Counted from the first letter of the stretch, positions 5,768 through 35,408 are shown. The stretch: DNA of 64,000 nucleotides from Tagaea sp. (GCA_965279525.1 CBDIIB010000005.1:1792001-1856000), one strand, 5' to 3'. A program made the numbers and translations. Notes: a model not told the origin generated them from the letters alone.

Positions 5768-5781
5768 GGAAGGGTCCCGCC

Positions 5782-12300: not shown

Positions 12301-12359
12301 ACCGCAAATAATATTTACGAAATTGTAGTGCCCGCTTGCTGTAGCGGGTCACTCCTACA

Positions 12360-12383
12360 TCATCCACAACGGGTTGTGGATAA
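12360..12383. promoter_or_regulatory. Pair of inverted DnaA boxes
   Basis: TCATCCACA (12360-12368, one mismatch) and TGTGGATAA (12375-12383, exact reverse complement of TTATCCACA) in an AT-rich intergenic region. Confidence 0.55.
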
Positions 12384-12472
12384 CGCGAATTCTATAGATT
12401 TTATAGTGGGTTGCATCACTTGGCGGCCTGCGGTTTGCTTGATAAATAAGAATTTCAACTTTTGCAGATTGC

Positions 12473-13789
12473 ATGAACGCCACAGCGCAGCTCAGTCCCA
12501 TCGGCCGGAAACTGCCGCCCAAGCTGACCCAGCCCCTGCTGGACCAGATGCTGGACGCGCATGTGCGCTGGCTCACCGGCAAGGCCGGCGGCAAGCGGCT
12601 GGTGCTGAAGTTCTTCGAGGCGAGCCATCTCGATTTCAACGACCGCGACCTGACCGATGCCGAGTTCGTCGGCGGCAGCTTCGTGGAAAGCGACTTCTCG
12701 CGCGCCAAGCTGCACCGCGCCAGCTTCTACGGCGCCGACGTGCGGCGCGCCTATTTCATCGATGCCGACATGACGCGCGTCGATTTCCGCGCGGCGTGCC
12801 TGTCGGGTGCCGATCTCGAAGGGGCGATCCTGCATCGCGCGGACCTGCGCGACGGGGTGATGGTCTCGGCCGGCGACGACGGCCAGCTCGACTACGCCAA
12901 GGCCGCGACGACGACGACCAACGCGTCGGGGGCCCGTTTCGTCGGCGCGCAGATGACCGAGGCGCGCGTGGGCCGGGCCATCGGCAACAAGACCGACCTG
13001 ACGAACTGCAATCTCGCCAACGCGAGTCTCGTCGGCGCCGACCTGACGGGTTCGGACCTGACCGGCACGATCTTCCGCGGCGCCGACCTCACCGAGACGA
13101 ACCTGTCGAACTGCATCCTGGGCGGCGCCACCTTCGCCGAAGCGCGCATGATGCGCACGAACCTCGAAGGCGCCGACCTTGCGGCCGTTTCGCTCGACGG
13201 CGCGTTCATGCAGGAGGTGCGCCTCGCGCACGCCAAGTATCCGGTCGATCCGATCCGCATTGGCTTCGATCTTGCCGCCGCGGTCGCCGATCACGGCAAG
13301 TGGGTCGATACCGAGGGGCGCGAAGGCAAGCAGCTCGATCTCGAAGCTTACGACTTCACCGCCGCCGATCTTTCCAACGCGCGCCTGTCGGCGGCCAAGT
13401 TCGTGCGCTGCACGTTCCGCAAGGCGGAGCTTTCCGGCGCCGATCTCACCTTCGCGAACCTGACGGGCTGCCAGTTCACCAACGCCAACCTGCCCGGCAT
13501 CAAGGCGCGCGGCGCCAATTTCTCGAAGACGAACCTGATGGGGGCCGACCTGCGCGGGGCCGATTTCAGCGCGCTGCCGCTGGCCCCCGGTGCCGCGCGC
13601 GCCACGTGGCCCACGCGCCTTGCCGACTGCCAGGCGACGGGCGCCAATTTCTCGGGCGCCAAGCTCACGGATTCCAACATGCGCCGGGCCATCCTGCGCG
13701 GCGCCGACCTCACCGACGTCGATGCGCGCGGTGCCGACATGGCGCGCGCCGATCTCGTCAAGGCGACGACGACGAACTTCAAGCGCTAG
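12473..13789 (+). CDS. Pentapeptide repeat protein
   Basis: Extensive A(D/N)LXX repeats (GADLEGAILHRADL, GADLTGSDLTG, GADLRGADFS). Confidence 0.92.
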   Translation: MNATAQLSPIGRKLPPKLTQPLLDQMLDAHVRWLTGKAGGKRLVLKFFEASHLDFNDRDLTDAEFVGGSFVESDFSRAKLHRASFYGADVRRAYFIDADMTRVDFRAACLSGADLEGAILHRADLRDGVMVSAGDDGQLDYAKAATTTTNASGARFVGAQMTEARVGRAIGNKTDLTNCNLANASLVGADLTGSDLTGTIFRGADLTETNLSNCILGGATFAEARMMRTNLEGADLAAVSLDGAFMQEVRLAHAKYPVDPIRIGFDLAAAVADHGKWVDTEGREGKQLDLEAYDFTAADLSNARLSAAKFVRCTFRKAELSGADLTFANLTGCQFTNANLPGIKARGANFSKTNLMGADLRGADFSALPLAPGAARATWPTRLADCQATGANFSGAKLTDSNMRRAILRGADLTDVDARGADMARADLVKATTTNFKR

Positions 13790-13822
13790 CCGGCCTCACA
13801 CGTCGGAAGGCCGTCCGGATTT

Positions 13823-14461
13823 TTACTGGCTGACCCACAGGATGCGGTGGCAGAAGACGACGTCCGACACTTCGAGGACGCGTTCGCCGTGCGCCGCGTT
13901 GAGCGAGGTGAGCTCGAGCTTGCGCTGGCCCTTGCGGATCAGCTGCTTTGCCATCACTTCGCCCGTCGTGGTCTTGACCACGCAGCGGTCGCCGCGGCGC
14001 AGGCTGGCCTGCGGCGAGACGACGATCGTGTCGCCGTCGCGGTAGACCGGCTCCATGCTGTCGCCCGCGACCATCAGCGCGTAGGCGTGCGTGTCGGCAA
14101 GCTCGGGGAACAGCAGCTCGTCCCAGCCCGCCCCGGTCGGATAGCCGGCATCGTCGAAGAAGCCCTTCTCGCCGGCCTGCGCGTAGCCGATCACGGGCAC
14201 GCGGCGCATGGCGCCGGCCACGCTCGGCACGGTGCCGATATAGCCGACGAACTCCGACATCGTGGCGCCGGTCGCCTCGAGGATCTTGGAGATGCTCTCG
14301 GTCGACGGCCAGCGCGGGCGGCCGTCGCGCGAGATGCGCTTGGACTTGTTGAAGGTTGTGGGATCGAGGCCGGCGCGGCGCGCCAGTCCCGACGGGGAGA
14401 AGCCATGATCGCCTGCGAGCTGATCGATGGCCTGCCAAACATCTGCGTGACGGAGAATCAT
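13823..14461 (-). CDS. HTH + peptidase S24 (CI/LexA-like) transcriptional repressor
   Basis: N-terminal SPSGLARRAGLDPTTFNKSKR HTH, AQAG cleavage-site-like motif, GDSMEP catalytic Ser, MAKQL catalytic Lys; start at MILRH. Confidence 0.9.
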   Translation of the reverse strand: MILRHADVWQAIDQLAGDHGFSPSGLARRAGLDPTTFNKSKRISRDGRPRWPSTESISKILEATGATMSEFVGYIGTVPSVAGAMRRVPVIGYAQAGEKGFFDDAGYPTGAGWDELLFPELADTHAYALMVAGDSMEPVYRDGDTIVVSPQASLRRGDRCVVKTTTGEVMAKQLIRKGQRKLELTSLNAAHGERVLEVSDVVFCHRILWVSQ

Positions 14462-14572
14462 GTGTGAATTTTTACTCAGGTTGTTGCGGAATGCATTAGG
14501 TATGTAAGCCAAAATATATCTTCAAATGAAAATAAACGCAAGTTTGTATGGATTGCGTCCCTGTCAAAGGAT

Positions 14573-14587
14573 GTTTAGCTTTTGTTC
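14573..14587 (+). promoter_or_regulatory. Possible alphaproteobacterial SOS (LexA) box
   Basis: GTTT-N7-GTTC, one mismatch from GTTC-N7-GTTC, about 20 nt upstream of ATG 14608. Confidence 0.4.
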
Positions 14588-14607
14588 TTTCCATTTCAGG
14601 TAGTGAC

Positions 14608-15075
14608 ATGCGGCGATTCCCAAGGGCGGGCAGGGTGCCGGAAGCGGCAAAGGCGGGTGGTCTTGCCACGGCCGGGGCGCGTGCCCTCGTCGTGTTCCGC
14701 GACCAGACCGAGATCCGCTGGCTCTACGGCCTCCGGCGGGGCTTCCGCCACTGCGCGGTGTGGGTGCGGGCGGGCGATTTCTGGATCGCACAGGAAACCC
14801 TTTCGCATCAGACTTTATTGGGGGTCTGGCCGGCCGGTGACGGGACCGGGCTGGTGGCGGCCCTGCGCGCGTCCGGGCACCGGGTCGTGCGCACGCGCAT
14901 CGCGGCGGCTCCCCGCCGGATCGCCCCGCCGCTGCCGTTCAGCTGTGTGGAATCGGTCAAGCGCGTTCTGGGCATCCACGCCTGGGATGTGCTGACCCCC
15001 TGGCAGCTCTACCGGCATTTGATCCGGGGGCGTTCAAAATCGATATTGACAATTACCCTAACTAGGAATATTTAA
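14608..15075 (+). CDS. Hypothetical protein, possible permuted papain-like (NlpC/P60) enzyme
   Basis: 155 aa; His-before-Cys order: FRHCAV ... FSCVE ... TPWQLY; start uncertain. Confidence 0.55.
   Translation: MRRFPRAGRVPEAAKAGGLATAGARALVVFRDQTEIRWLYGLRRGFRHCAVWVRAGDFWIAQETLSHQTLLGVWPAGDGTGLVAALRASGHRVVRTRIAAAPRRIAPPLPFSCVESVKRVLGIHAWDVLTPWQLYRHLIRGRSKSILTITLTRNI
15046..15074 (+). promoter_or_regulatory. Sigma70-type promoter for portal operon
   Basis: TTGACA (15046-15051)-N17-TATTTA in an AT-rich patch upstream of ATG 15184. Confidence 0.55.
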
Positions 15076-15183
15076 TAAAACAGGCTCGATATTCGGGCAG
15101 TTTCGGGTTTCGAAGGGCGCGATTTCGGGCGCCTTGGAACCGGAAATAGGTTTTAGTGCCAACTTTTTTGCTGGAGATGTCCC

Positions 15184-15399
15184 ATGGGTGGTTTTTTCTC
15201 GGCTCCCTCGATTCCCGCTTCGCCGCCACCGCCGCCGCTCCCCGAGCCGGTCGATACCGACAAGGAAGCGCGCGAGGCGCGCATCAAGGCGCTGATCCGC
15301 CGCCGGCGCGGCCGGGCCGGCCTTGTCGCGACCGGCGATCGCGGCGTGCTGCAGGCCCCGGCCGGCGCCTCGCTGCTGGCGACGAAGCTGGGAGAATGA
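15184..15399 (+). CDS. Small proline-rich/basic virion protein preceding portal (T7 gp6.7/7.3-like position)
   Basis: 71 aa, MGGFFSAP...PPPPP...RRRRGR...LGE; GGAG RBS; ATGA overlap with portal. Confidence 0.7.
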   Translation: MGGFFSAPSIPASPPPPPLPEPVDTDKEAREARIKALIRRRRGRAGLVATGDRGVLQAPAGASLLATKLGE

Positions 15400-16952
15400 C
15401 GATGGCCGATTTCGATCCGCCCACTTTCGATCCGGCCGCCGCCGCCAGCGAAGCGCTTGCCCGCTACCGGCGCGCGCGCCAGTCGCGCGGCAACTGGGAA
15501 GCGGTCTGGCAGGACTGCTACGAGTTCGCGTTGCCCCAGCGCACGCCGTCGGGGACCGGCGGCATCGAGCGGCGCGGCGAGCGGCTGTTCGACGGCACAG
15601 CCGGCGACGCGGCCGAGCAGCTTGCCGCCTCGCTGATGTCGCAGCTCGTGCCGCCCTGGTCGCGCTGGTTCGGCCTGCAGCCGGGCAACGAGGTGCCCGA
15701 GGCGCATCGCACGGCCGTCGGCGAGGTGCTGGAAAAGGCCGCCGCCACGCTGCAGGCGCATTTCGACCGCTCGAACTTCGCCATGGAGATCCACCAGTGT
15801 TTCCTCGACCTCGTCGTCGCCGGCACGGCGATGCTGCAGTTCGAGGAAGCGCCGGCAGGGGCGGACTCCGCGTTCCGCTTCGCGGCCGTGCCGCTGGGAA
15901 GACTGGCGCTCGACGAGACCGCCGAAGGCGCCTTCGACATCGTCTTCCGCACGAGCGAGCTTTCCGCCGAACGGCTGATGGCGCGTTTTCCCGACGCGGC
16001 ACTGCCCGACGCGATCCGGAAAACCGACCCGCGCGGCAGCGCCGAGCGGCGCTTCACGGTCGTCGAATCGCTGCAGGCCGAGCGGCCGGGCTTCCGTTAT
16101 CTCGCCCTGCTCGAGGACGGCACCGACGCGTCCGGCCCCGTCGTGCTAGCGGAGGGGCGTTTCGAGCAGCCGCCGTTCCTCGCCTTCCGCTGGCTCAAGG
16201 CGCCGGGCGAGGTCTATGGCCGCTCGCCCGTGATGAAGGCGCTGCCCGACATCAAGACCGCCAACAAGGTGGTCGAACTCGTGCTGAAGAACGCGTCGAT
16301 CGCGGTCACCGGCATCTGGCAGGCGGACGACGACGGCGTGCTCAACCCCGCGAACATCCGCCTGCAGCCGGGCACGATCATCCCCAAGGCAGTGGGTTCG
16401 GCCGGCCTCACGCCGCTCGAAGCACCCGGGCGCTTCGACGTGTCGAACCTCGTGCTCGACGACCTGCGCAAGCGCATCCGCCATGCGCTTCTCGCCGACC
16501 GTCTCGGGCAGGTCGACAGCCCGACGATGACCGCGACCGAGGTGCTGGAACGTTCGGCGGAGATGTCGCGCATCCTGGGGGCGACCTATGGCCGCCTGCA
16601 GGCCGAACTGCTGACGCCGCTGATCGCGCGCGCCATCGCCATCCTGCGCCGGCGCGGCGAGATCCCGCCCGTGCTGGTCGACGGGCGCACGGTCGAGCTC
16701 CAGTACAAGTCGCCGCTGGCACTCGTGCAAGCGCAGGCCGACGTGCGCAACGCCATGCTGTGGATCACCCAGGCCGCCAGCCTCGGCCCCGAGGCGATGG
16801 CCGTCGTCGATGCCGGGGCCGCCGCACGCTGGATGGCGCGCGCGTTGAGCGTGCCGGCCGATCTCGTCCGTCCGCCGTCCCCTGTTCTGCCGGGGCCTGT
16901 TTCGCCGATGGCGATGCTCGCCCAAGTCCTCACACCCCAACCCCAACAGTGA
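15396..16952 (+). CDS. Head-tail connector / portal protein (T7 gp8-like)
   Basis: 518 aa; W..CYEFALP, LFDGTA...LAASL...PP...WF, GEVYGRSP, MTATEVLER motifs of podoviral portals. Confidence 0.92.
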   Translation: MTMADFDPPTFDPAAAASEALARYRRARQSRGNWEAVWQDCYEFALPQRTPSGTGGIERRGERLFDGTAGDAAEQLAASLMSQLVPPWSRWFGLQPGNEVPEAHRTAVGEVLEKAAATLQAHFDRSNFAMEIHQCFLDLVVAGTAMLQFEEAPAGADSAFRFAAVPLGRLALDETAEGAFDIVFRTSELSAERLMARFPDAALPDAIRKTDPRGSAERRFTVVESLQAERPGFRYLALLEDGTDASGPVVLAEGRFEQPPFLAFRWLKAPGEVYGRSPVMKALPDIKTANKVVELVLKNASIAVTGIWQADDDGVLNPANIRLQPGTIIPKAVGSAGLTPLEAPGRFDVSNLVLDDLRKRIRHALLADRLGQVDSPTMTATEVLERSAEMSRILGATYGRLQAELLTPLIARAIAILRRRGEIPPVLVDGRTVELQYKSPLALVQAQADVRNAMLWITQAASLGPEAMAVVDAGAAARWMARALSVPADLVRPPSPVLPGPVSPMAMLAQVLTPQPQQ

Positions 16953-16963
16953 AAGGAAGAACC

Positions 16964-17686
16964 ATGACCGATACGATCGCGAATTCCCCCGCAACGCCGC
17001 CGCCTTCGCGCCCCGACCACGTGCCCGAGAAATTCTGGGACGTGGAGGGCAACCAGGTGCGCGTCGAGGCGCTGTCGAAATCCTATTCGGAACTCGAGCG
17101 CAAGCTCTCCGGCATGATCCCGGGGCCGAAATCGCCCGAATGGGAGCAGAGCTGGCGCAAGGCGCTGGGCGTGCCCGAAGCGCCCGACGCCTACCGCATC
17201 GCGCCCAAGGACGAACTCGTTTCGGTCGATCCGGAAGTGAACCGCCGCCTGCATGCGGCCGGCTTCACGCCGCAGCAGGCCCAGCTCGTCTACGACCTCG
17301 CGGTCGAGCGGCTCGTCCCGATGGTGCAGGACTATGCCGAGAGCTACCGCACCGAGACCGCGCGCGAGAAGCTCGCGGCCGAGTTCGGCGGCGCGGATCA
17401 ATGGGCCGCACTGGCCCCGCAGATCGCGCGCTGGGGCCAGCAGGCCCTGCCTTCGCATGTCTACGCGGCGCTCGCCGCGTCGCCCGAGGGCGTGCGCGCG
17501 ATGCACCGCATGATGTCGTCGAAGGAACCGGACCTGCGTGGCTTCGGCGGTGCGGCCGCCCCGCTCGACGAGGAAGGCCTGCGCAAGCTGATGTCCGACA
17601 AGCGCTACTGGCGCGACCACGACCCCGCGGTCGTGCGTGCCGTCAGTGAAGGTTTCAAGCGGCTCTACCCGGATCGCGAATCCTGA
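16964..17686 (+). CDS. Capsid assembly scaffolding protein
   Basis: 240 aa between portal and capsid; RPDHVPEKFW...LSKSYSELERKL N-terminus and MSDKRYWRDHDP C-terminus; AGGA RBS. Confidence 0.82.
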   Translation: MTDTIANSPATPPPSRPDHVPEKFWDVEGNQVRVEALSKSYSELERKLSGMIPGPKSPEWEQSWRKALGVPEAPDAYRIAPKDELVSVDPEVNRRLHAAGFTPQQAQLVYDLAVERLVPMVQDYAESYRTETAREKLAAEFGGADQWAALAPQIARWGQQALPSHVYAALAASPEGVRAMHRMMSSKEPDLRGFGGAAAPLDEEGLRKLMSDKRYWRDHDPAVVRAVSEGFKRLYPDRES

Positions 17687-17696
17687 TCCGCAGGGC

Positions 17697-17725
17697 TTGA
17701 CAACAAAACAACCATAGATTATATA
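17697..17725 (+). promoter_or_regulatory. Sigma70-type promoter for major capsid gene
   Basis: TTGACA (17697-17702)-N17-TATATA (17720-17725). Confidence 0.7.
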
Positions 17726-17730
17726 CCGGA

Positions 17731-17926
17731 TCGTTCCGCCCCGCCCTGTGCGCGGGAGAACGGAACGACCCACTTCCTTCCAGCGCCAACGGGACAACCG
17801 GCTTTCCGGCCCCCACGGCACCGCCCGACTTTCCCCCGCGAAACGGGGTCGTGGCTTTCGTGTCCTTTCCGGACGCGGGCGCCTCGGCAACCCTCGCTTG
17901 CGGGTCCCCCGAACCCAACTCGCAAC
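17731..17926 (+). ncRNA. Candidate structured cis-regulatory leader RNA of capsid mRNA
   Basis: Several stems (TCGTTCCG/CGGAACGA, CCGG-CTTT-CCGG, CCCCG-CGAAA-CGGGG, CGTGTCC/GGACGCG) starting at the predicted transcription start. Confidence 0.5.
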
Positions 17927-17936
17927 AGAGGGACCC

Positions 17937-18749
17937 ATGCCCGACATCGACAAGGCTTTCGTCAAGCAATACGAGAACGACGTCCATCTCGCCTTCCAGC
18001 GGATGGGCTCGAAACTGCGCACGAGCGTGCGCTCGAAGAAGAACGTCCAGGGTGCTTCGACCGTCTTCCAGAAAATGGGTCGCGGCGCCGCCACCACCAA
18101 GGCCCGCCACGCGGCCGTGCCCGTGATGAACGTCGACCATGCGACGGTCGAAGTGTTCCTCAAGGATTATTACGCGGGCGAATGGCTCGACGCGCTCGAC
18201 GAGATCAAGGCGCCGAGCGACGAGCGTTCGGCGGTCGTCAATTCCGGCGCCTACGCGCTGGGACGCAAGACCGACGAGCTGATCATCGGCGCACTCCAGA
18301 CCTCGGCGAACTTCGCCGGGGCCGACACCGACGGTCTCACCAAGGCCAAGATCCTGACCGCGTTCGAGATGCTGGGCGCTTCCGACGTGCCCGACGACGG
18401 TGACCGCTTCGCCATCATCGGGTGGAAGCAGTGGAGCGAGCTGCTCGACATCGACGAGTTCGCCAACGCCGACTATGTCGGCGCCGACGATCTCCCGTGG
18501 CAGGGCACGCAGGCCAAGAAGTGGCTCGGCACCTTGTGGATGCCGCATTCGGGCCTGCTCGCCAGCGGCGGCGTGCGCGCGTGCCACTGGTACCACAAGG
18601 CCGCGGTCGGCCACGCGTCGGGCTGCGAGGTGCGCTCGGACGTGTCGTGGCACGGCGACCGCGCGTCGTTCTTCATCAGCAACATGATGAGCCAGGGCGC
18701 CGGCATCATCGATGCCGCCGGCGTCGTGACCCTGCGCTGCAAGGAATAG
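17937..18749 (+). CDS. Major capsid protein
   Basis: 270 aa; FVKQYENDVHLAFQRMGSKLR, DE, AYALGRKTDELII pattern of podoviral capsids; position after scaffold; GAGGGA RBS. Confidence 0.88.
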   Translation: MPDIDKAFVKQYENDVHLAFQRMGSKLRTSVRSKKNVQGASTVFQKMGRGAATTKARHAAVPVMNVDHATVEVFLKDYYAGEWLDALDEIKAPSDERSAVVNSGAYALGRKTDELIIGALQTSANFAGADTDGLTKAKILTAFEMLGASDVPDDGDRFAIIGWKQWSELLDIDEFANADYVGADDLPWQGTQAKKWLGTLWMPHSGLLASGGVRACHWYHKAAVGHASGCEVRSDVSWHGDRASFFISNMMSQGAGIIDAAGVVTLRCKE

Positions 18750-18758
18750 GAGCGAACG

Positions 18759-19028
18759 ATGGCCTTCGAACTCAGGAACCTGTCCGTGCTCGCCTACGCG
18801 AACGGCTTCACGCTGTGGCACTACGCCACGCCGGATGAAGCCGCCGCGGTCGACGATGCGGGCTACTTCAACGCCGCCGCCGACATGCTGCGCGCCGGCG
18901 ACATGATCCTTGCCAACACGGCCACGACGACGGCGCCGCAAAGCGGCGTCTTCGCGGTCGCGACGGTGGCGGCGGGATCGGTCGATGCCGCGAGCCTGAC
19001 ACCGTTCGGCACGTCCAACCCCGACTGA
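18759..19028 (+). CDS. Small conserved-looking protein after capsid (possible decoration/cement protein)
   Basis: 89 aa, AGGAG RBS, LSVLAYANGFTLWHY...GYF...GDMI; function inferred from position only. Confidence 0.6.
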   Translation: MAFELRNLSVLAYANGFTLWHYATPDEAAAVDDAGYFNAAADMLRAGDMILANTATTTAPQSGVFAVATVAAGSVDAASLTPFGTSNPD

Positions 19029-19040
19029 CGAAACGGCAAC

Positions 19041-19072
19041 CCGGCGGGCGCGATCGCGTCCGCCGGACTTTC
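19041..19072 (+). terminator. Strong hairpin between head and tail genes (probable leaky terminator)
   Basis: CCGGCGGGCGCG-AT-CGCGTCCGCCGG followed by ACTTTCCCTT. Confidence 0.55.
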
Positions 19073-19092
19073 CCTTGTCCGGAGAATCCGCA

Positions 19093-19662
19093 ATGGCCCT
19101 CACGTCCATCGCCTTGTGCGCGCGCGCCCTCGTCAAGCTCGGTGCCCGCTCGATCGCCTCGTTCGACGAAGGCACGGCCGAGGCGGAAGTCGCCGCCGTG
19201 CTCTATCCATCCGTGCGCGACGGCCTGCTGTCCGCCCATCCGTGGAGCTTCGCGACCGGCCAGGCCACGCTTGCGCGCCTTGCGCGCGATCCCGTCGCCG
19301 ACCACGCCTTCGCCTACCAGCTTCCGGCCGATTTCCTGCGCGCTTTGTCGCTGGGGACGGGCACGCGCGGCCGCGGGACCGAATACCGGATCGTGGAATC
19401 CACGCTCCACTGCGATGCCGACCAGGTCGTGCTGTCCTACGTGTTCCGGCCCGACGAGACCGGCTTCCCGCCCTTCTTCGACACGCTGCTGATCGCCACG
19501 CTGGCGGCCGAGTTCTGCCTGCCGGTGACGGAAAGCACCAGCCGCGCCGAACTGCTGCGCCGCGTGGCCGAGGGCGAGTTCCGGCGCGCGCGCCTGATCG
19601 ACGCCCAGCAGGACACGCCCCAGCGCATCGAGGACTTCACGCTGGTGGAGGCCCGCCGATGA
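19093..19662 (+). CDS. Tail tubular protein A / adaptor (T7 gp11-like)
   Basis: 189 aa; ICxxAL-like start (LCARALVKLG..I.SFDE), HPWSFA, YQLPADFLR motifs. Confidence 0.82.
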   Translation: MALTSIALCARALVKLGARSIASFDEGTAEAEVAAVLYPSVRDGLLSAHPWSFATGQATLARLARDPVADHAFAYQLPADFLRALSLGTGTRGRGTEYRIVESTLHCDADQVVLSYVFRPDETGFPPFFDTLLIATLAAEFCLPVTESTSRAELLRRVAEGEFRRARLIDAQQDTPQRIEDFTLVEARR

Positions 19663-21566
19663 GCGTCGTGCGCATCGCCAAGACGAGCTTCGCCTCGGGC
19701 GAGATCGGACCGGCCATGCTGGGCCGCGTGGACCTGCGCGCGTTCGAGAACGGGGCGCGCACGTTGCGCAACGTCATCGTGCAGCCGTCGGGCGGCGTGA
19801 CGCGCCGGCCGGGGCTGGCGCATGTCGCCACGCTGCCGGGCCCGGCCCGGCTGGTCGCGTTCGAGTTCAACACCGAGCAGGCCTATCTGCTGGCCCTCCT
19901 CGACGGGGAGATGCGCGTCTATCGCGAGGGCGTGCAGGTGGCGAGCCTCGCCACACCGTGGACGGGCGCGCAGATCGGCCAGGTCGCGTGGACGCAGAGT
20001 GCGGACACGCTGCTCGTCGTGCATCCCGACGTGCCGCCGCGGCGCATCACGCGCACGTCGCACGCGGCGTGGACGATCGAGCCGTGGGCCTTTTTCGAGG
20101 ACAAGGGTGTGCGCCACCAGCCCTACCACAAGTTCGCCGCGACCGACGTCACACTCCAGCCGAGCGGAACGTCGGGCTCCGTGACGCTGACGGCGTCGGC
20201 CGACGCGTTCGTCGCCGGCCATGTCGGCGAGAAGCTGCGCGTCCAGCAGAAGGAGCTGACGGTCACCGCCGTGACGGGTCCGCGCAGCGCCACCGCCACC
20301 CTCGCGACCGACCAGACGCTGCCCGACACGAGCGCGACGCGCGACTGGGAGGAGGCGGCGTTTTCCGCCATCCGCGGCTGGCCGGTATCGGTCACGTTCC
20401 ACCAGGACCGGCTCGTCGTCGGCGGTTCGCGCGACCTGCCCAACCGGCTGTGGCTGTCGAAATCGGGCGACCTGTTCAATTTCGATCTGGGCACGGGTCT
20501 GGACGACGAGGCGATCGAGTTCGCGCTGCTGTCCGACCAGGTCAACGCGATCCGCCACGTCTTCTCGGGTCGCCACCTGCAGGTCTTCACGTCGGGGGCC
20601 GAATGGATGGTGACGGGCGAGCCGCTGACGCCCGAGAACGTCCAGCTCGACCGGCAGACGCGCATCGGCAGTCCGACGGACCGTTCGGTACGGCCGCGCG
20701 ACGTGGATGGTGCGACGCTATTCGTCGGGCGCGGCGGACATGATCTTCGCGAGTTCCTGTTCGCCGATGGCGAGCAGGCCTATCAGGCGACGGATCTGGC
20801 GTTGCTTGCCCCGCATCTGGTGCGCGATCCCGTCGCCATCGAGTACGACCCGGACGACCGGCTGCTGCACGTCGTCAATGCCGACGGCACGCTTGCCACG
20901 CTGACGGTCTATCGCGCCGAGCAGGTGACCGCGTGGGCGTTGCAGACGACGCTCGGGTACTTCCGTTCGGTCGCGACGGTGTCGGACGAGACCTATCTTG
21001 CGGTCGAGCGCACGGGCATCTGGTCGGTCGAACGCTTCGACCGGTCCTTCGCGACCGACGCTGCCGTGCGGCTTGAGCCGCCGCAGAACGCCACGCAGTG
21101 GACGGGCCTTGCGCATCTCGACGCCAAGAAAGTCGAACTCGTCGGCGACGGCGTGCCGCTGGGCACCGGCATCCCGATCGGCGGCACACTTGACGTACGG
21201 GCACCCGTCGCGTCGCTCGAAGCGGGCCTCGCATTCGCCGCCGTGATCGAACCTCTGCCGCCCACGCTTGCCGCGGCCGGCGGGGCGAGCCCGCGCAGCG
21301 TGCGCCTGATCGAGGCCGCGTTCCGCCTGCTGGAGGCGCGCCAGATGCGCATCGACACCGGCGGCGGTGCCGTCGACGTGCCGTTCCGCCGCTTCGCCGC
21401 CGGCAGCACCCTCGACCAGCCCGTCGCCGGCTTCACCGGCGAGAAACGCGTGCGCGCGTTGGGCTGGAAGCGGGCCGGCATCGACGCGCTGTGGCGCATC
21501 GAACTGCCGGCACCGCTGCCTTTCACGCTGCTTTCCGTAACCCACGAACTGAAGGTGAATGACTGA
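19659..21566 (+). CDS. Tail tubular protein B / nozzle (T7 gp12-like)
   Basis: 635 aa; SFASGEI...R.D...NVIVQPSGGVTRRPG, QSAD, GWP..VTFHQDRL, WLSKSGD.FNF motifs; ATGA coupling. Confidence 0.82.
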   Translation: MSVVRIAKTSFASGEIGPAMLGRVDLRAFENGARTLRNVIVQPSGGVTRRPGLAHVATLPGPARLVAFEFNTEQAYLLALLDGEMRVYREGVQVASLATPWTGAQIGQVAWTQSADTLLVVHPDVPPRRITRTSHAAWTIEPWAFFEDKGVRHQPYHKFAATDVTLQPSGTSGSVTLTASADAFVAGHVGEKLRVQQKELTVTAVTGPRSATATLATDQTLPDTSATRDWEEAAFSAIRGWPVSVTFHQDRLVVGGSRDLPNRLWLSKSGDLFNFDLGTGLDDEAIEFALLSDQVNAIRHVFSGRHLQVFTSGAEWMVTGEPLTPENVQLDRQTRIGSPTDRSVRPRDVDGATLFVGRGGHDLREFLFADGEQAYQATDLALLAPHLVRDPVAIEYDPDDRLLHVVNADGTLATLTVYRAEQVTAWALQTTLGYFRSVATVSDETYLAVERTGIWSVERFDRSFATDAAVRLEPPQNATQWTGLAHLDAKKVELVGDGVPLGTGIPIGGTLDVRAPVASLEAGLAFAAVIEPLPPTLAAAGGASPRSVRLIEAAFRLLEARQMRIDTGGGAVDVPFRRFAAGSTLDQPVAGFTGEKRVRALGWKRAGIDALWRIELPAPLPFTLLSVTHELKVND

Positions 21567-22126
21567 TGGGTGGTTTCGCTCCGACCGATCCGGTCACGGC
21601 CGGGATCGCAGGCGTCAGCCTGCTCCACGGCATCGCTAGCTCGGGTGCTGCCGCATCCCACGCGCAGGCGCAAGCCGCCGCACAGGCGCAGGCCATGCAG
21701 GTGCAGGCCGAACGCCAGCGCCAGCTGCTCGAGCGCCAGTACGAGTCACAGACGCGCCAGCGCACCAACCTGCTCGAACGCGCGACCGCGAAGGCGCGCG
21801 TGTCGTTCGGTGCGCGCGGCATCTCGCCGACCGACGGTTCGGCGGGCGCCATGCTCGACGGCATCGAGACCGATTTCGGCATCGAGGAGGCCGAACGCTT
21901 CCAGGACTACACGATGCAGCGCGACGGGCTGGCGCACGGGCTGGCGGCCTCGCTCCAGCGCATCGACGGCATGCGCCAGGGCAACTTGCTCGCCGCGGAG
22001 TCCGACGTGCAGCGCCGGATCCTCGGCCTGCTGAGCTGGGGCGGCCGGACTTTCGGCCGAAGTGGCGGAAATCAGCGGGCGCCGACCGGTGATTTCCCCG
22101 TTGGCCCCTACGACAACTTCGTCTGA
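21566..22126 (+). CDS. Internal virion (ejection) protein-like, gp14-type
   Basis: 186 aa; Gly/Ala-rich hydrophobic N-terminus, Gln/Ala coiled coil, GARGI...GSA motif; position after nozzle. Confidence 0.6.
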   Translation: MGGFAPTDPVTAGIAGVSLLHGIASSGAAASHAQAQAAAQAQAMQVQAERQRQLLERQYESQTRQRTNLLERATAKARVSFGARGISPTDGSAGAMLDGIETDFGIEEAERFQDYTMQRDGLAHGLAASLQRIDGMRQGNLLAAESDVQRRILGLLSWGGRTFGRSGGNQRAPTGDFPVGPYDNFV

Positions 22127-22142
22127 CGCAAGGAGCACCCTC

Positions 22143-23894
22143 ATGAGCGAACACATCAAGATTGCCGCCCGTCCGCCGCGCAAGCGCTATCGCGCCGACG
22201 GCAGCCAGCGCGTCTTCGCCTTCGACTTCGCGGTCTTCCGGCCCGAAGACATCGAGATCGGCATCGACGGCGCGGTCCTTTCGGGCGGCTACACCGTCGC
22301 GGTCGGCACTGCCGGCAGCGGTGCCGTCACGCTCGACGTGGCACCGCCCGACGGTGCCGCCGTCGTCGTCCAGCGCCGCCTGCTGCTGCGCCGCGAGACG
22401 GATTTCCAGGAAGGCGGCGAGCTGCGCGCCAAGACGCTCAACGACGAACTCGATTTCCAGGCGGCCGCCCTCCAGCAGGTCGCGAGCGCGGTGGCGCGGT
22501 CGCTGCACCTGCCCGACGAAGATGCCGACGATGCCGCAACGCGCCTGCCGCGCGCCGGGCTGCGCGCACGCAAGGCGCTGGTGTTCGACATGGCCGGCAA
22601 TCCGGCCGTGTCGGCCGACATATATGTCGACCAGGCGGCGGCGTCGGCGGCGAGTGCCGACGCTGCCGCCGGATCGGCGACGGCGGCCGGCACGTCTTCC
22701 GCGTCCGCTTCGGCATCCGCTGGTGCAGCACTCGTGTCCGCCGATGCGGCGGCCGCATCGCAAGCACTTGCCGCAACGCATCTGGCCGGCACGACCATCC
22801 ACGCGGGCACGGCTGCCGCCGCCGCATCGGCCGTCGCCGTGCCGTGGACCCATGACGCATCGGTCGCGATCGACGATCCGGGTCCGGGACGCTTCCGCTT
22901 CGATGCGGCCGACCCGTCGGCGGCGGGCGCCATCGCGGTGTCGGCCCTTTCCGCCGATACCGGCGTGCCCGACGTCTCGGACTTCGTCGCGACGTGGGGG
23001 GCCAGCACCAACCCGGCGGTCAAGGGCACGCTGGTCTTGCGCAAGAGCGGCGCGCCGTCGACCTTCGCGGCGTTCGCGATCCAGTCGGTCGTCGATCACG
23101 GTGCCTGGCTTGCCGTCGCGGTCGCGCATGTCGCGTCGGGCGGAAGCTGGGCGGCGGGCGATCTGGCCCATTTCGGGTTCGCGCGCGCCGGTGACAAGGG
23201 CTTCGACGGGACCGGCACGGTCGTCAGCGTCGCGGCGGGCGACGGGTCGGTCGCGGTCGGCGGCACGCCGTTCGATCGCACCGTCGCCGTCGCCGCGAAC
23301 GGCGTGACGCTGGCCAAGCTCGCCCGAGAAGGATCGCCCGGACAGGTCCTCACGTCGAACGGGGCGGGTGCCGATCCCGCGTACCAGGCGCTGCCGGCGG
23401 GCGTGCCTGCGGGCACGGTCGTGCCCTATGCCGGGGCGAGCGAACCGGCGGGCTGGCTGTTCGCCGCCGGGCAGGCCGTGAGCCGGTCGGCGTTCGCAGC
23501 GCTTTTCGCGGCGATCGGCACGACGTTCGGCAGCGGCGACGGATCGACGACATTCAACCTGCCCGACCTGCGCGGGCGCGTGGCGGCCGGTCGCGACAAC
23601 ATGAACGGTACTTCCGCCAACCGCCTGACCGCCGGTGGTGCCGGCATCGCGGGCCTGACGCTTGGTGCGGCGGGCGGCAGCGAGACGCATGCGCTGACGG
23701 CCGCCCAGATGCCGGCGCATTCGCACAGCTACGTCGCCGGGGGCGGCGGCATGACGGTCGCGGGCTCCTTCGGCGGCACCGACACGACGGCCGGCACGCC
23801 GGGCAGCGGCAGCACGTCGGGAGCCGCGGGTTCGGGTGCGGCACATCCCAACGTGCAGCCCACGCTCGTCCTCAACCACATCGTCAAGACCTGA
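22143..23894 (+). CDS. Tail fibre protein with T7 gp17-like N-terminus and C-terminal tail-collar domain
   Basis: 583 aa; Y.ADG...FAFDF...LNDELD N-terminal anchor, Ala/Ser linker, PAGTVVPYAG...GWL...TTFNLPDLRGR collar motif. Confidence 0.87.
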   Translation: MSEHIKIAARPPRKRYRADGSQRVFAFDFAVFRPEDIEIGIDGAVLSGGYTVAVGTAGSGAVTLDVAPPDGAAVVVQRRLLLRRETDFQEGGELRAKTLNDELDFQAAALQQVASAVARSLHLPDEDADDAATRLPRAGLRARKALVFDMAGNPAVSADIYVDQAAASAASADAAAGSATAAGTSSASASASAGAALVSADAAAASQALAATHLAGTTIHAGTAAAAASAVAVPWTHDASVAIDDPGPGRFRFDAADPSAAGAIAVSALSADTGVPDVSDFVATWGASTNPAVKGTLVLRKSGAPSTFAAFAIQSVVDHGAWLAVAVAHVASGGSWAAGDLAHFGFARAGDKGFDGTGTVVSVAAGDGSVAVGGTPFDRTVAVAANGVTLAKLAREGSPGQVLTSNGAGADPAYQALPAGVPAGTVVPYAGASEPAGWLFAAGQAVSRSAFAALFAAIGTTFGSGDGSTTFNLPDLRGRVAAGRDNMNGTSANRLTAGGAGIAGLTLGAAGGSETHALTAAQMPAHSHSYVAGGGGMTVAGSFGGTDTTAGTPGSGSTSGAAGSGAAHPNVQPTLVLNHIVKT

Positions 23895-23896
23895 AC

Positions 23897-25411
23897 ATGA
23901 AAAAGAAACCCGCCTTGCCGCCGCCGGCACCGCCTGCCGTGCCCGGCTTTCCCGCATTCGTCAACGACTGGAACGCGCTGCAGGGGCAGGGCACGCCCGC
24001 GTTGCACGCGCGCATGGCCGGCTGGCTTGCCGATGCGCGGGCGTCGCGCGCGGCGGGCCTGGTCCTGCTCGCGTTCCGCTCGAGCGGCAAGTCGACGCTG
24101 ATCGGGCTGTTCTGCGCCTGGCTGCTGGCGCGCGATCCCGACCTGCGCGTGCTGGTGCTGGCGGCGGAAGAAGCGCTCGCGCGCAAGATGGTGCGCAACG
24201 TCAAGCGCATCGTCGAGCGGCACCCGGCGACGGCGGGCCTGAAGCCGGTGCGCGCCGACATGTGGGCTTCGGACCAGTTCGTCGTCGAGCGGCGGGCGGA
24301 ACTGCGCGACCCCTCGATGCTGGCGCGCGGGCTTGCGGGCAACATCACCGGCAGCCGCGCCGACGTGGTGATCTGCGACGACGTCGAGGTGCCCAACACC
24401 TGCGACACGCACGCCAAGCGCGTCGAGCTGCGCGAACGGCTGACCGAGATCGACTACGTGCTCGTTCCCGGCGGCCTGCAGCTCTATATCGGCACGCCGC
24501 ACAGCTACTATTCGATCTATGCGGCCGAGGCGCGTGCTGAAGCGGGCGAAAGCGTGCCGTTCCTCGACGGCTTCACGCGCCTGTCGATCCCGGTCGTGGC
24601 GCCCGACGGGACCTATGCGTGGCCCGAGCGGTTCGACCTCGCGCGTCTGGATGCGGTGCGCAAGCGCACCGGCCCGCAGAAGTTCCGCGCGCAGATGATG
24701 CTGGAGCCGGTCGCCGACGGTGCCTGCCGGCTCGATCCCGACCGCCTCGTCGCCTACGACTGGCCGCTCGATTATTCGGAAGGCAACGGGGCGCCGGTCC
24801 TTTCGATCGGCGGCAAGCAGATGGTATCGGCCGGCTGCTGGTGGGATCCGTCCTATGGCACCGCGGCGGGCGACAGCTCCGTCGTCGCGGTCGTGTTCGC
24901 CGACAAGGAAGGCCATTGCTATCTGCACGAGGTGAAGTACCTCGCCCTTCCCGCCGGCACGCGCCCCGAGGACGAGGCGAAGGCGTTCTGCCGCCAGGTC
25001 GCCGAGTTCGCCAGGCGCAACCACGTGCCGGTCGTTCGCGTGGAAACCAATGGCCTTGGCGGATTCCTGCCCGGGCTGTTGCGCGGGGAAATCCTCGCGG
25101 CGAAGGCGGGCTGCGGGGCGGTCGGCATCCACAACCGGATACCGAAGGTCCGCCGCATCCTCGACGCGTTCGACGCGCGTCTGGCCGCCGGCATGCTCCA
25201 CGCCCATCGCGGCGTGTGGGCGACACCCTTCGTTGCCGAGATGCGCGAGTGGCGTGCCGACCTCAGCGGCGTGCGCGACGACGGGCTCGACGCCGTGGCC
25301 GGCTGCCTTGCCGGCGAGCCGGTGCGCTTTCCTGCCGTCGCACGCGAAACGCCGCCCGATTGGCGGCCGGGTGCGGGCTCGCACAAGGCGCGCACCGAGT
25401 TCGAGATCTGA
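23897..25411 (+). CDS. Terminase large subunit (T7 gp19-like)
   Basis: 504 aa; Walker A AFRSSGKS, ITGSRAD-VVICDD Walker B, IGTP, nuclease WDPS ... ETN ... DDGLDA. Confidence 0.93.
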   Translation: MKKKPALPPPAPPAVPGFPAFVNDWNALQGQGTPALHARMAGWLADARASRAAGLVLLAFRSSGKSTLIGLFCAWLLARDPDLRVLVLAAEEALARKMVRNVKRIVERHPATAGLKPVRADMWASDQFVVERRAELRDPSMLARGLAGNITGSRADVVICDDVEVPNTCDTHAKRVELRERLTEIDYVLVPGGLQLYIGTPHSYYSIYAAEARAEAGESVPFLDGFTRLSIPVVAPDGTYAWPERFDLARLDAVRKRTGPQKFRAQMMLEPVADGACRLDPDRLVAYDWPLDYSEGNGAPVLSIGGKQMVSAGCWWDPSYGTAAGDSSVVAVVFADKEGHCYLHEVKYLALPAGTRPEDEAKAFCRQVAEFARRNHVPVVRVETNGLGGFLPGLLRGEILAAKAGCGAVGIHNRIPKVRRILDAFDARLAAGMLHAHRGVWATPFVAEMREWRADLSGVRDDGLDAVAGCLAGEPVRFPAVARETPPDWRPGAGSHKARTEFEI

Positions 25412-25431
25412 AACGAGGAGAGGGATCTGCA

Positions 25432-25725
25432 ATGGATATGTTCGAACTGACGCCCGGCCTTGCGATCGTCGCGGCCTCCGACGCGTCGAGCTTCGGCGCG
25501 ATCGCGTGGCTGTTCTGGAAGCGCCACCAGGACCAGGAACGCATGCTCGATCGGCTGCGCCAGGCCTGTCTCGACGAGACGCGCGACCTGCGCCATGCGC
25601 TTGCCGAGTTCAAGCTCGAGGTCGCGCGCGGCTACGCGTCGATCGGCTACATCAAGGATGTCGAGAACCGGCTGACGGCCCACCTGCTGCGCATCGAGGC
25701 GAAGCTCGACGGAGTGGGCGCATGA
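25432..25725 (+). CDS. Small membrane-anchored coiled-coil protein (lysis-module associated)
   Basis: 97 aa, GAGGAG RBS, hydrophobic N-terminus then FKLEVA..YAS...KDVE.RL..HLLRIE.KLD; ATGA overlap with holin. Confidence 0.6.
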   Translation: MDMFELTPGLAIVAASDASSFGAIAWLFWKRHQDQERMLDRLRQACLDETRDLRHALAEFKLEVARGYASIGYIKDVENRLTAHLLRIEAKLDGVGA

Positions 25726-26267
25726 TCCCGGCCCTGATCGCCCAGGTCGGTCTGCCGCTGCTCGTCCGGCTCGTGGGCGGTGCCTTGTCGCAGATCGACC
25801 ATCCGGCCGCGCGCGCGGCGGCGGACGCACTCGAGACGGCCGGCGGCACGCTGACGCAAGAGCAGGTCGCCGAGGCCAACCGCCATCTCGAGGCGATGGC
25901 GCGGCTCGAAAGCGAGGAAGGCCGCGAGACGATCCGCGAGGTCAACGCCTCGCTGCGCACCGAGGCCGCCAGCGAGGACGCCTATGTGCGGCGCATGCGG
26001 CCGACCTTCGGCTACGTGATGGCCGCGACGTGGGCCGCCCAGATGGGGGCGGTGGCGTGGATCGTCGTGCGCAAGCCGGGCGAGGCCGCCGCGGTGATCG
26101 AAGCACTTGGCGCCTTGTCGGTCGTCTGGTCGGTCGGGCTGTCGGTGCTGGGCGTCTATGTCTACAAGCGCTCGTCCGACAAGGCGGTGGCGTCGGGGGC
26201 GGTGGCGTCGGGAAGTCCGCGGCCGGGCCTGGTCGATGCGATCCGAGGGGCCGTCTTGCGGCGCTAG
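25722..26267 (+). CDS. 3TM-type holin (GTA_holin_3TM-like)
   Basis: 181 aa; [17 protein letters not shown] ... TM segments ... [12 protein letters not shown] matches the RP..G / LG...RS.DK pattern of this family. Confidence 0.78.
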
Positions 26268-27934
26268 GCCGCCCCGCCGCCGGCCGAGTTGCTCAGCAGG
26301 CGCTCGGAGATGCGCCGCAGGCCGCCGATGTTCTCGGTGACCGTCGCGAGCGACACGCGCACGCCGGCCGAGCTCGTGCTGACCGCGTCGATCTCGCGGC
26401 TGACGTTCTTGATCTTGGCGGAGACCTCGCGCGAGGCTTCGGCCGTCTGGGCGACGTTGCGCGCGATCTCCTGCGTGGCCGAGCCCTGTTCTTCCATCGC
26501 GGCGGCGATCGCGGTCGCGACCCCGTCGACCTCGCGGATGCGCTCGCCGATCTCGGCCACGGCCGCGACCGCGGCGTCCGTCGCCGTCTGGATCTCGCCG
26601 ACCTGGCGGTCGATGTCCTCGGTCGAGCGGCCGGTCTGGTTGGCGAGGTTCTTGACCTCCGATGCCACCACCGCGAAGCCCTTGCCGGCATCGCCCGCGC
26701 GCGCGGCCTCGATCGTGGCGTTCAGCGCCAGCAGGTTGGTGCGCCCGGCGATCTCGCCGATGAGCTTGCTCACCTCGGCGATCTTGCCCACGGCGTCGGA
26801 CAGCGAGCGGATCGTCGCCTGCGCGTTCTGGCCGCTCGACACGGCGCTCTTCGTCACGCTCGAGGCGCGCGCGACCTGGGTGGTGATCTCGTGGATCGAC
26901 GCCGAAAGTTCCTCGGCCGCGGACGAGACCGTCTGGACATTGACGAGCGCCTGCTCGGATGCCGCGGCGACCGCCTCGCTCTCGGCCAGCACCTCGCCGG
27001 CGAGCTTCGCCATGCCTTGTGCGGCCTCGTCGACGCTGCTCGTCGCGGCGGCGATGGAATCGACGGCGACCGCGGTTTCCTGGACGGTCGCGGTCATCTC
27101 GAGCATCCGGCGCTGGCGGCGCTCTTCGGACTGCGCCGCGGCCTTCGCGGCGTCGGCGCGCAGCCGCTCGTTCTCGACCGCGTTGTCCTTGAAGAACGAG
27201 ACCGCGGCCGCCATGTCGCCGACCTCGTCGGTCCGCCCGCTGCCGGGGATCCCGATGGCGACGTCGCCGGCGGCAAGCCGGCTCATCGCCGACGCCATGG
27301 CCCCGACCGGCCGGCCGATGTTGCGCGCAAGCAGGAGCCCGACGATCGCCGCGACGACGACCGTGAGGAGCGCCACCGCCGAAAGCGCCAGCACGACGTT
27401 GTCCACGCTGCGCGTGGCGTCCTGGCGGAAATAGTAGCCGTGCTCCTTCGCGGCCTCGTTGACGATCGTGATCCGCGTCTCGAGGGTCTTCAGCAGGGCG
27501 TCCTTCTCGGCCAGCAGGTTCCCGGGAACCTCGCCGCCGGCCGACGCATCGGCAAAGAGCCGCGTGCGCAACGCTTCCCACCGGGCGAGCGTCTCGCGGA
27601 CATTCGCGATCTGGGTGGCGCTGTCGGGGCCGACCGCCCGCTCCTCGACGATCGCGAGATCGTCGAGGAGGGCCGATTCCTGGCTCGTCACGGCCTCGAT
27701 GTCGGGCGGCGTGCCGTCGCGCCGCTGCTGGAGAGCCAGCGTCACCGCGAGGTCGAGCTTGGCGTAGTTCGTCATCGCCGACGCGGCGAAGTCGCTTGCC
27801 ATCAACGGCCCGTCATAGAGCGCCTCGGTGAGCGAGGCGGCCTTGCGCAGGCCGATGACGGCATAGCCGCCCATCGCCATCGTCATGACGATGACGATGG
27901 CGAGGCCGACAAGGATTTTTCCCCGGATACGCAT
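26264..27934 (-). CDS. Methyl-accepting chemotaxis protein
   Basis: Two TM helices, periplasmic four-helix domain, HAMP (DEVGDMA), [34 protein letters not shown] signalling hairpin. Confidence 0.95.
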
Positions 27935-27968
27935 TGCCGCGACTCCCGTATGTCGGGGAACGACCCGA

Positions 27969-28289
27969 TTACCTGACGGTCAGTTTCATCTTCATCTGCG
28001 GGTGGATGGCGCAACGCACCTCGCCCGTTCCTTCGCGGTCGAACTTGATGTCGCTCGACTCGCCGGGCTTCTGCACCTTCAGCTCGAAGGCGATGCCCGG
28101 CGACTGCGAATAGACATTGTGGGTGAACGGGTCGTCGTTCTTGAAGACGATGGTGTCGCCCTTGGCGATCGTCATCTCGGCGACGGCGAACTTCTTGTCG
28201 GCCTGGACGACGGTGCTGGTCGCCGCAAGCGCATAGCTGCTTGCGGCACCGGTGGCGATGGCGAGGACGGGCAACATGTAACGGCGCAT
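27969..28289 (-). CDS. Periplasmic cupredoxin (plastocyanin/amicyanin-like)
   Basis: 106 aa; signal peptide, HNV and C-x2-H-x2-M (CAIHPQM) type-1 copper ligands. Confidence 0.88.
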
Positions 28290-28333
28290 CTTGGTAGCTC
28301 CTTGGATTCGGGTCGACGTATCTTGTCGGGTTT

Positions 28334-35365: not shown

Positions 35366-35408
35366 AACCTATCCGTCGTCGACCTCCGGCACAGAAGCGA
35401 ACAAGCAC

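Follow-up and report, generated by a model that had tools for sequence, protein, structure and literature searches.

To our knowledge, only a handful of independent domestications of gene transfer agents (GTAs) are known, and essentially one type has been studied in Alphaproteobacteria, the siphovirus-like RcGTA, plus the Bartonella GTA. The present analysis concerns a cluster of 13 genes at positions 13823-26267 of a 64,000-nucleotide stretch of Tagaea sp. DNA (GCA_965279525.1 CBDIIB010000005.1:1792001-1856000), the whole of which is referred to here as the window. The cluster is read, with moderate confidence, as a particle operon of T7-type podovirus origin that has become fixed in the chromosome, is inherited vertically in Tagaea and many other Alphaproteobacteria, is maintained by purifying selection and is GTA-like as far as sequence can tell.

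The RcGTA type (RcGTA, Caulobacter CcGTA; Rhodogtaviriformidae) resembles the Tagaea cluster in its set of structural, packaging and lysis genes with no replication or integration genes, in its vertical inheritance within Alphaproteobacteria under purifying selection and in the Pfam family of its holin, GTA_holin_3TM. Multi-locus layouts occur in some lineages; the cluster studied here forms one locus in the window, and its counterparts in other families may be divided between two distant loci. The two differ in ancestry, as the portal, capsid, tubular tail proteins and large terminase (TerL) of the Tagaea cluster are of T7 type, whereas the HK97-type portal, prohead protease, tape measure and GTA_TIM are missing from it. 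A preliminary description of the window had already set the cluster apart from RcGTA, and rightly so, since its proteins fall into T7 families and GTA_TIM (PF13547) found no match in the source genome, with a positive Caulobacter control; the Tagaea cluster lies outside the RcGTA type. PBSX-type defective phages are host-kept, damage-inducible particles that package host DNA; PBSX itself is myovirus-like, belongs to Gram-positive bacteria and acts as a killer rather than a donor, and its comparison with the Tagaea cluster is one of general description.

A podovirus-like, GTA-like element, FpGTA of Faecalibacterium prausnitzii, is described in the available part of PMC12946183 as comprising two operons without replication genes, with a candidate small terminase (TerS) and with experimentally observed packaging of ~8.4-8.9 kb of host DNA. 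The podovirus-like character and the missing replication genes are common to FpGTA and the Tagaea cluster; FpGTA differs in belonging to Firmicutes and in its experimental support, the comparison being drawn between its published description and the Tagaea gene content. No paper on a T7-like GTA of Alphaproteobacteria was found in the literature searched, in which Faecalibacterium is the sole source of a podovirus-like element of this sort: as far as the available portions of these sources go, PMC9254644 (George et al.) deals with RcGTA-type genes, PMC10386132 with a different podovirus lineage, and PMC3245306 mentions an Azospirillum GTA, citing Boyer et al. 2008.

T7-like podophages without an RNA polymerase (Pelagibacter HTVC010P/Hodr type, Methylophilales MEP301, Yersinia YeP4-6) share their virion gene families with the Tagaea cluster, but they are complete phages of 34-39 kb with low identity to it, whereas replication genes, a small terminase and large internal virion proteins are missing from the cluster. 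In a collection of 50,697 phage records, whose nearest members are 30-38% identical, these Pelagibacter, Methylophilales and Yersinia podophages gave the best matches to the portal (31-38% identity) and to TerL (~28-31%). A 5-kb piece of human faecal origin, filed without annotation as 'Bacteriophage sp.' (MT838907.1), encodes a portal of 60% identity, far above the isolated phages, and may stem from the same kind of host-kept cluster in a gut alphaproteobacterium. Compared with T7 proper (Autographiviridae), the cluster is T7-like in its virion genes and TerL, whereas an RNA polymerase, a DNA polymerase and an ejectosome were not recognised in it. The integrase, att repeats, replication module and variable insertion sites of temperate prophages were likewise not seen, and neither was the integrase or replication initiator with a partial virion set of phage satellites (phage-inducible chromosomal islands, PICI, and capsid-forming PICI, cf-PICI), as the head and tail set of the Tagaea cluster is complete.

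Gene content of the Tagaea locus

The locus spans ~12.4 kb and consists of a divergent repressor gene on the minus strand and 12 intact forward genes, which overlap or abut one another with the sole exception of a 250-bp gap ahead of the capsid gene (Table 1). As the window has ~68% G+C, genes were called from a frame plot of third-position G+C (GC3) together with start mapping. The 13 intact genes and the parts named in the preliminary description were all recovered, with small boundary corrections at the starts of the orf2, capsid, tubular protein B and repressor genes and at the 3' end, where a 97-aa gene precedes the holin gene. Four of the forward genes encode proteins of no assigned function (orf2 and the 89-aa, 186-aa and 97-aa proteins), and the scaffold protein is named by its position.

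The T7 likeness claimed for the tubular proteins and the Walker A motif of the terminase was borne out by matches to phrog_394, phrog_376 and termin_lrg_T7; TerL exceeds the cut-off of the latter equivalog by far (399 versus 150 bits), matches the structures of T7 gp19 (4BIJ, 2.5e-19) and PDB 8DGC, and carries intact Walker A (AFRSSGKST) and Walker B (DVVICDDVE) motifs. The reported resemblance of the holin to GTA_holin_3TM is also reproduced (PF11351). In agreement with what had first been stated, scans with Pfam, PHROGs and NCBIfam detected no integrase or replication gene in the cluster, no phage RNA polymerase or DNA polymerase was found there, and none of the 20 largest families of direct repeats shown for 12300-28300 brackets it as att repeats would. 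No tRNA lies near it. The T7 RNA polymerase family profile PF00940 went unmatched in the genome; as it matched none of the control genomes either, this result is uninformative. As had also been described, ordinary host genes flank the cluster, coding for a pentapeptide-repeat protein, a GST and a VTT/DedA protein on one side and for an MCP and a cytochrome c peroxidase on the other.

Descent and selection in Tagaea and across Alphaproteobacteria

The portal gene was detected (E<=1e-100) in 18 of 20 other Tagaea species genomes with 68-94% identity, so that the compact cluster, as anticipated, recurs in congeneric species. When 20-kb regions from 16 Tagaea genomes and two genomes of other families were compared, the whole colinear set from repressor to holin was observed in 13 of the 16 Tagaea loci, the remaining three ending at contig edges. 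The neighbour on the repressor side is a class-I lysyl-tRNA synthetase gene (lysK) in 15 of 18 loci; this flank is replaced in the source genome (G000) and in G012, and in the source genome lysK is found 1.3 Mb away with no repressor adjoining.

All well-supported nodes are shared between a tree of RpoB DNA (15 genomes) and a tree of the concatenated cluster (17 genomes; 2576 columns from 7 proteins), which is the congruence of gene and species trees that the preliminary description had proposed to examine. The sole mismatch is the placement of G017, whose RpoB sequence is partial and whose position in the RpoB tree is supported at 41/27. The ratio of nonsynonymous to synonymous substitution rates (dN/dS; NG86, 10 species pairs) ranges from 0.00 to 0.53 over all 13 genes, indicating the purifying selection that had likewise been suggested as a check; the highest values belong to the fibre and the 186-aa gene, the fibre being the fastest-evolving gene (0.23-0.53, with a variable C-terminus). 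For comparison, flanking host genes show 0.08-0.26 and RpoB 0.02-0.06, and the dS of the cluster is similar to that of the flanks.

Beyond the genus, an even sample of 401 Alphaproteobacteria genomes was screened for the capsid (E<=1e-50), and 69 of them, the source genome included, have a homologue, representing 57 of 308 genera. One match per genome was observed in 68 of the 69 positives and two in G128; capsid identity is just 39-42% in four of them, and genomes of 0.9-1.4 Mb are among the positives. Thirty-three of these 401 genomes gave a match to GTA_TIM (PF13547), and none of the 33 is capsid-positive, a comparison uncorrected for relatedness.

For the class-wide comparison, 62 loci from 41 families were assembled, in which the portal lies upstream of the capsid in 29 loci and is missing there in 24, while two are rearranged and seven could not be judged. 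The portal-less arrangement (no portal within at least 4 kb upstream of the capsid) is consistent within families f57, f88, f93, f101, f128 and f145. On one complete 4.07-Mb chromosome, the repressor-orf2-portal-scaffold block is located ~1.49 Mb away from the capsid-to-holin block, and the same split was observed in two more genomes, including Magnetospirillum sp. LM-5, in both of which host genes immediately precede the capsid. The best high-scoring pairs (HSPs) are free of stops for capsid (62/62), tubular protein A (57/57), tubular protein B (58/58) and TerL (47/47); the stops in the HSPs of repressor, orf2 and portal most likely reflect N-terminal over-extension, which was seen directly for orf2. 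Cluster and flank G+C are closely correlated (r=0.96 over 55 loci, range 0.31-0.70). No integrase, transposase or phage replication family was found (E<=1e-8) among the 146 open reading frames (ORFs) within 2.6 kb of the cluster, sampled at one locus per family in 39 families, among which host RecR and DnaX occur once.

The neighbours lysK and DUF952-pyrD recur between families. Dihydroorotate dehydrogenase (DHODH, pyrD) adjoins the cluster in 14 of the 62 loci and 10 of the 41 families, and lysK adjoins the repressor in two further families, both as in Tagaea. The capsid tree (70 rows) requires 41 family-label changes, the minimum for 42 families, as against 58-62 in 200 shuffles; 13 of 17 multi-member families are monophyletic in it and the other four are split at weakly supported nodes. 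DHODH and cluster distances are correlated (r=0.56, 120 pairs), and several groupings are common to both trees. The lineage extends over the whole class, and its age and breadth go far beyond what the preliminary description supposed.

Two deviating arrangements were also encountered. In tiny genomes (~0.9 Mb, 38-41% G+C; L082, L095 and L096) the order is capsid-89aa-tubA-tubB-terL-portal, with TerL matched in two pieces, N- and C-terminal, ~3.4 kb apart in L082 and L095, and with the N-terminal TerL part only, directly before the portal, in L096. At 12159-13463 of locus L108 (genome G324), no portal was detected between scaffold and orf2, whereas it is present in the sister genome G439; this gap may represent a deletion or a relocation.

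In IMG/VR, 16 of 17 loci represent the cluster or part of it, some entries starting exactly at the repressor and some carrying lysyl-tRNA synthetase or DUF952-DHODH flanks, and one represents a prophage; together with the flanks of the 39 families, this agrees with the expectation that homologues would rarely lie in complete prophages. The exception, G452 (the IMG/VR record behind L157; also L159 and L160), is a true 30.5-kb prophage with replication and recombination genes. It has the same order orf2-portal-scaffold-capsid-89aa-tubA-tubB, but differs in its primosomal protein, RecT, TerS, other type of TerL and GH108 lysin, and in the 688- and 839-aa proteins that follow tubB; its portal, scaffold and tubB stand far from those of Tagaea, at 40%, 29% and 37% identity respectively. 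G452 shows what the host-kept form has shed.

Weighing a host-kept particle against other readings

From the gene content and by analogy with RcGTA, the operon would be held silent by its CI/LexA-type repressor until DNA damage, through RecA-stimulated self-cleavage of the repressor, releases it in some cells. A head would then be built from portal, scaffold and capsid and loaded with DNA by the T7-type TerL, the short tail would be completed by tubular proteins A and B and by the fibre, which would mediate attachment, and the producer would be lysed by the holin and the 97-aa membrane protein. The packaged DNA would be mostly host chromosome, because genes for replication, excision and a small terminase are lacking at the locus, and delivery would halt at the periplasm, because the large T7 ejectosome proteins are missing from the cluster, so that uptake functions of the recipient would take over as in RcGTA. 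More tentatively, the lineage could be a second ancient alphaproteobacterial GTA of T7 type, descended from one ancestral site with the order lysK-repressor-operon-DUF952-pyrD, carried by about a sixth of the genera sampled in a pattern complementary to RcGTA, induced by damage and delivering host DNA without an ejectosome through recipient uptake; this wider proposal is possible, though on balance doubtful.

Several observations weigh against a host-maintained GTA-like particle. The cluster is dispensable. At the same site as in its relative G001, G015 holds a deletion remnant (L081, C38, 6950-9820) in which internal deletions took out portal-to-terL and left the repressor, orf2, a portal stub of ~50 codons, a capsid fragment of 224 bp, the final 45 codons of terL, and the 97-aa and holin genes; G014 (86% complete) has no match to the cluster; and orf2 of G008 (L021 15381-15839, minus strand) has a premature in-frame stop at a Trp conserved in most other aligned copies, the remaining cluster looking intact. 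In 14 other genera of the same GTDB family, the portal (E<=1e-100) was found in 0 of 29 genomes, and four of four sister-genus genomes (G024, G058, G021, G061; L161-L164) show an empty site with the order lysK-(aminotransferase)-repressor-DUF952-pyrD-EAL. Loss of the operon in the sister genera is favoured over its regain by Tagaea through recombination between conserved flanks, because the same neighbours occur in other families. Neither a small terminase nor an endolysin was recognised in the Tagaea cluster (Pfam, PHROGs, NCBIfam), nor an ejectosome or internal core of the gp14-gp16 class, for which the rest of the genome was not searched; the interval from nozzle to fibre holds the 186-aa protein only. 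The particle may therefore be incomplete, or its lacking parts may be encoded elsewhere. A T=7 head, if such is formed, could hold the whole 12.4-kb locus, so that the mark of a GTA that it cannot package itself may fail. Control differs as well, being exerted through CtrA and quorum sensing in RcGTA, whereas the repressor of the Tagaea cluster is SOS-type, CI/LexA-like and in that respect prophage-like. Resolution is poor at the deep nodes of both the DHODH tree and the cluster tree. Lastly, the capsid and tubular protein A of the prophage G452 are 66% identical to those of Tagaea and nested among host-kept copies, which suggests that modules are still being exchanged between true phages and host-kept clusters. 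The claim of the preliminary description that the cluster is host-maintained and not a decaying prophage has passed all the computational checks proposed with it, subject to the dispensability and the prophage-like control just described. The name GTA is a functional one, defined by particles that carry random host DNA, less of it than the encoding genes would need, and deliver it to recipients; in this sense the cluster is a candidate, and the interpretation first given is partly supported.

The repressor is the most conserved cluster gene in Tagaea (92-97% identity where the portal has 70-79%; dN/dS 0.02-0.19) and is kept, 60-75% identical, at the empty site in all four sister-genus genomes checked. 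Conserved to this degree and persisting beyond the operon at the empty sites, the repressor probably serves the host in a capacity of its own. These same data speak for a benefit other than DNA transfer, for example altruistic lysis triggered by damage, which would release DNA or nutrients, or repressor-mediated superinfection exclusion; such a benefit would leave unexplained why the head, tail and packaging genes are all under purifying selection in 41 families, and it is regarded as distinctly unlikely. Somewhat less unlikely, yet still improbable, is a PBSX-like killer particle, a phage-derived bacteriocin by which a stressed subpopulation would lyse and kill or damage competitors, the packaged DNA being a by-product with no productive delivery. 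Gene content, vertical descent and selection speak for it as much as for a GTA-like particle, its SOS-type repressor control is reminiscent of PBSX-type elements, ejectosome proteins were not recognised, and the fibre evolves fastest; a packaging ATPase with intact Walker motifs, free of stops in 47 of 47 loci, would however be costly to keep if the DNA were irrelevant. Both a killer particle and some other lysis-linked benefit are compatible with these observations, which do not separate killing from transfer.

The two remaining readings are rejected by the data, which support a host-kept particle operon. That of a slowly decaying relic prophage, whose neighbourhood was kept by chance or by a preferred integration site, can draw on the G015 remnant, the orf2 stop in G008, the absence from sister genera and the undetected portal of G324, but dN/dS stays far below 1 for every gene in the 10 pairs, the core genes are free of stops in 62 loci from 41 families, cluster G+C follows that of hosts from 31 to 70%, divergence parallels that of RpoB and both halves of the split loci are intact; it is considered highly improbable. 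Least credence of all is given to a still-mobile minimal phage or satellite replicated by host or helper. It is true that IMG/VR predictors call the cluster viral, that a related true prophage exists and that contigs from RNA libraries of relatives cover its genes, with DNA carry-over possible; against these points, the cluster has no integrase, replication gene or att repeat, 68 of 69 positive genomes have a single match, the neighbours recur across families, the two-locus layouts could not be packaged as one genome, and known satellites lack structural genes and not replication genes.

A podovirus-derived system of this kind, kept in many alphaproteobacterial families and never met beside GTA_TIM in a sampled genome, would alter current views on the prevalence of DNA-packaging particles owned by their hosts, on the frequency with which virus predictors mislabel such clusters as proviruses, as with the IMG/VR entries, and on gene movement in groups such as magnetotactic and freshwater Rhodospirillales-like bacteria. 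The intact, deleted, split and repressor-only states constitute a natural experiment on what selection keeps such elements.

Individual features of the locus

Table 1. Features of the Tagaea particle operon and its control sequences, in window coordinates.
Feature	Position	Strand	Evidence
CI/LexA-type repressor, helix-turn-helix (HTH) and S24 autopeptidase, divergent from operon	13823..14461	-	PF00717 3.5e-20; phrog_4 8.8e-28; start ATG 14461
AT-rich divergent control region, repressor/operon spacer (146 bp)	14462..14607	.	low G+C in frame plot
orf2, conserved 155-aa protein	14608..15075	+	start mapping
T7-type portal (head-to-tail connector)	15177..16952	+	PF12236 1.7e-137; phrog_332 3.2e-101
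Putative scaffold protein	16964..17686	+	position only; frame from GC3 plot and ribosome-binding site
Major capsid protein	17937..18749	+	PF19821 1.6e-77; phrog_3437; PDB 9EG4 1.2e-21
Conserved 89-aa virion-module protein	18759..19028	+	phrog_18004 (unknown function) 3.7e-18
Strong GC hairpin with T-rich tail at head/tail gene junction, possible attenuator	19041..19066	+	11 pairs, 10 G-C
Tail tubular protein A (adaptor)	19093..19662	+	phrog_394 2.2e-46
Tail tubular protein B (nozzle)	19659..21566	+	phrog_376 2.6e-140; PDB 8CK1 'Tail Nozzle' 6.1e-61
186-aa Gln/Ala-rich protein	21566..22126	+	alignment A4
Tail fibre, possible T7-like N-terminal anchor and Collar-domain C-terminal part	22143..23894	+	PF07484 1.5e-23
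T7-type large terminase (TerL)	23897..25411	+	NCBIfam NF033889 termin_lrg_T7 3e-119
97-aa membrane-anchored coiled-coil protein	25432..25725	+	alignment A1; 4-base overlap with holin start
Holin with three transmembrane segments	25722..26267	+	PF11351 GTA_holin_3TM 6e-10; phrog_3427 holin

The translated repressor shows the Ala-Gly site, the GDSM serine and the AKQ lysine. Its identification as the host LexA was rejected, as it scores 30 bits with TIGR00498 against a cut-off of 111 and a canonical LexA is encoded on contig C3. The spacer between repressor and operon, within which the operator would be expected, contains conserved blocks across 9 Tagaea loci; a sigma-70 consensus scan of the spacer gave no match and no promoter was found there, and no Rfam RNA family was detected in 13000-27500. 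The hairpin at the head/tail junction follows the capsid and 89-aa genes and precedes the tail genes, and in T7 a terminator stands directly after the capsid gene; as terminator-like sites in total (8) are not above the number in shuffles (6.9), the hairpin is treated as a lead only.

The orf2 protein displays the invariant pattern His-Cys ... Cys-x-Glu-xx-Lys-Arg (alignment A2, 16 sequences) and is always located directly upstream of the portal, also in the prophage G452. It has at least 1440 homologues, and the 120 listed are all named 'hypothetical protein', none with a Pfam domain; the Pfam, PHROGs, NCBIfam and PDB-profile libraries gave no match for orf2 itself. A permuted papain-like peptidase or lysin was considered and is not claimed, the His-Cys ... 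Cys-x-Glu pattern being its sole basis. The scaffold protein is conserved in 19 sequences (alignment A6) and has no family (NCBIfam included) or PDB match; an ATG ORF at 17140-17649 was rejected as its gene, since it lies in another frame than that supported by the GC3 plot and start mapping. The 89-aa protein has a mean column identity of 69% (alignment A5, 20 sequences) and no match in the PDB-profile search.

For the 186-aa protein, no Pfam, NCBIfam or PDB match was found and only a weak one to phrog_35077, of unknown function (2.4e-4), so that the label 'internal protein' in the preliminary description stands as one possibility, a small tail protein being another. The fibre scores 20.4 bits with the T7 fibre N-terminal domain PF03906, under the cut-off of 25.2, and matches 23 PHROG families, mostly tail or tail-fibre, with the tail families covering the same N-terminal stretch. 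The 97-aa protein begins with a hydrophobic helix and ends in a conserved coiled coil (alignment A1, 19 sequences), and is probably lysis-associated; it has no useful family or structure match in Pfam, PHROGs, NCBIfam or the PDB-profile search. In five other families, a Hydrolase_2 cell-wall hydrolase is encoded at the terL/lysis-gene end of the cluster (L031 16548-16982; L093 1544-2050; L111 17918-18433; L134 7837-8304; L139 8134-8595); the Tagaea cluster is without it, and its lysin may be of an unrecognised kind or encoded elsewhere.

Contigs filed as RNA from two runs (X21 and X22) of one plankton sample cover parts of at least eight cluster genes within 13000-27500, among them the repressor, portal, capsid, tubA, tubB, terL, 97-aa and holin genes, with ~85-96% identity in the pieces listed; the threshold was 88% identity, DNA carry-over is possible, expression levels cannot be read from contigs, and they were not counted as expression. 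On the upstream side, the pentapeptide-repeat protein gene (12473-13789) adjoins the cluster. Two very long ORFs occur elsewhere in the window, at 4438-10338 (~1966 aa) and 35340-41324 (~1995 aa), the former being a call of the ORF list at a place where the GC3 filter kept shorter ORFs alone.

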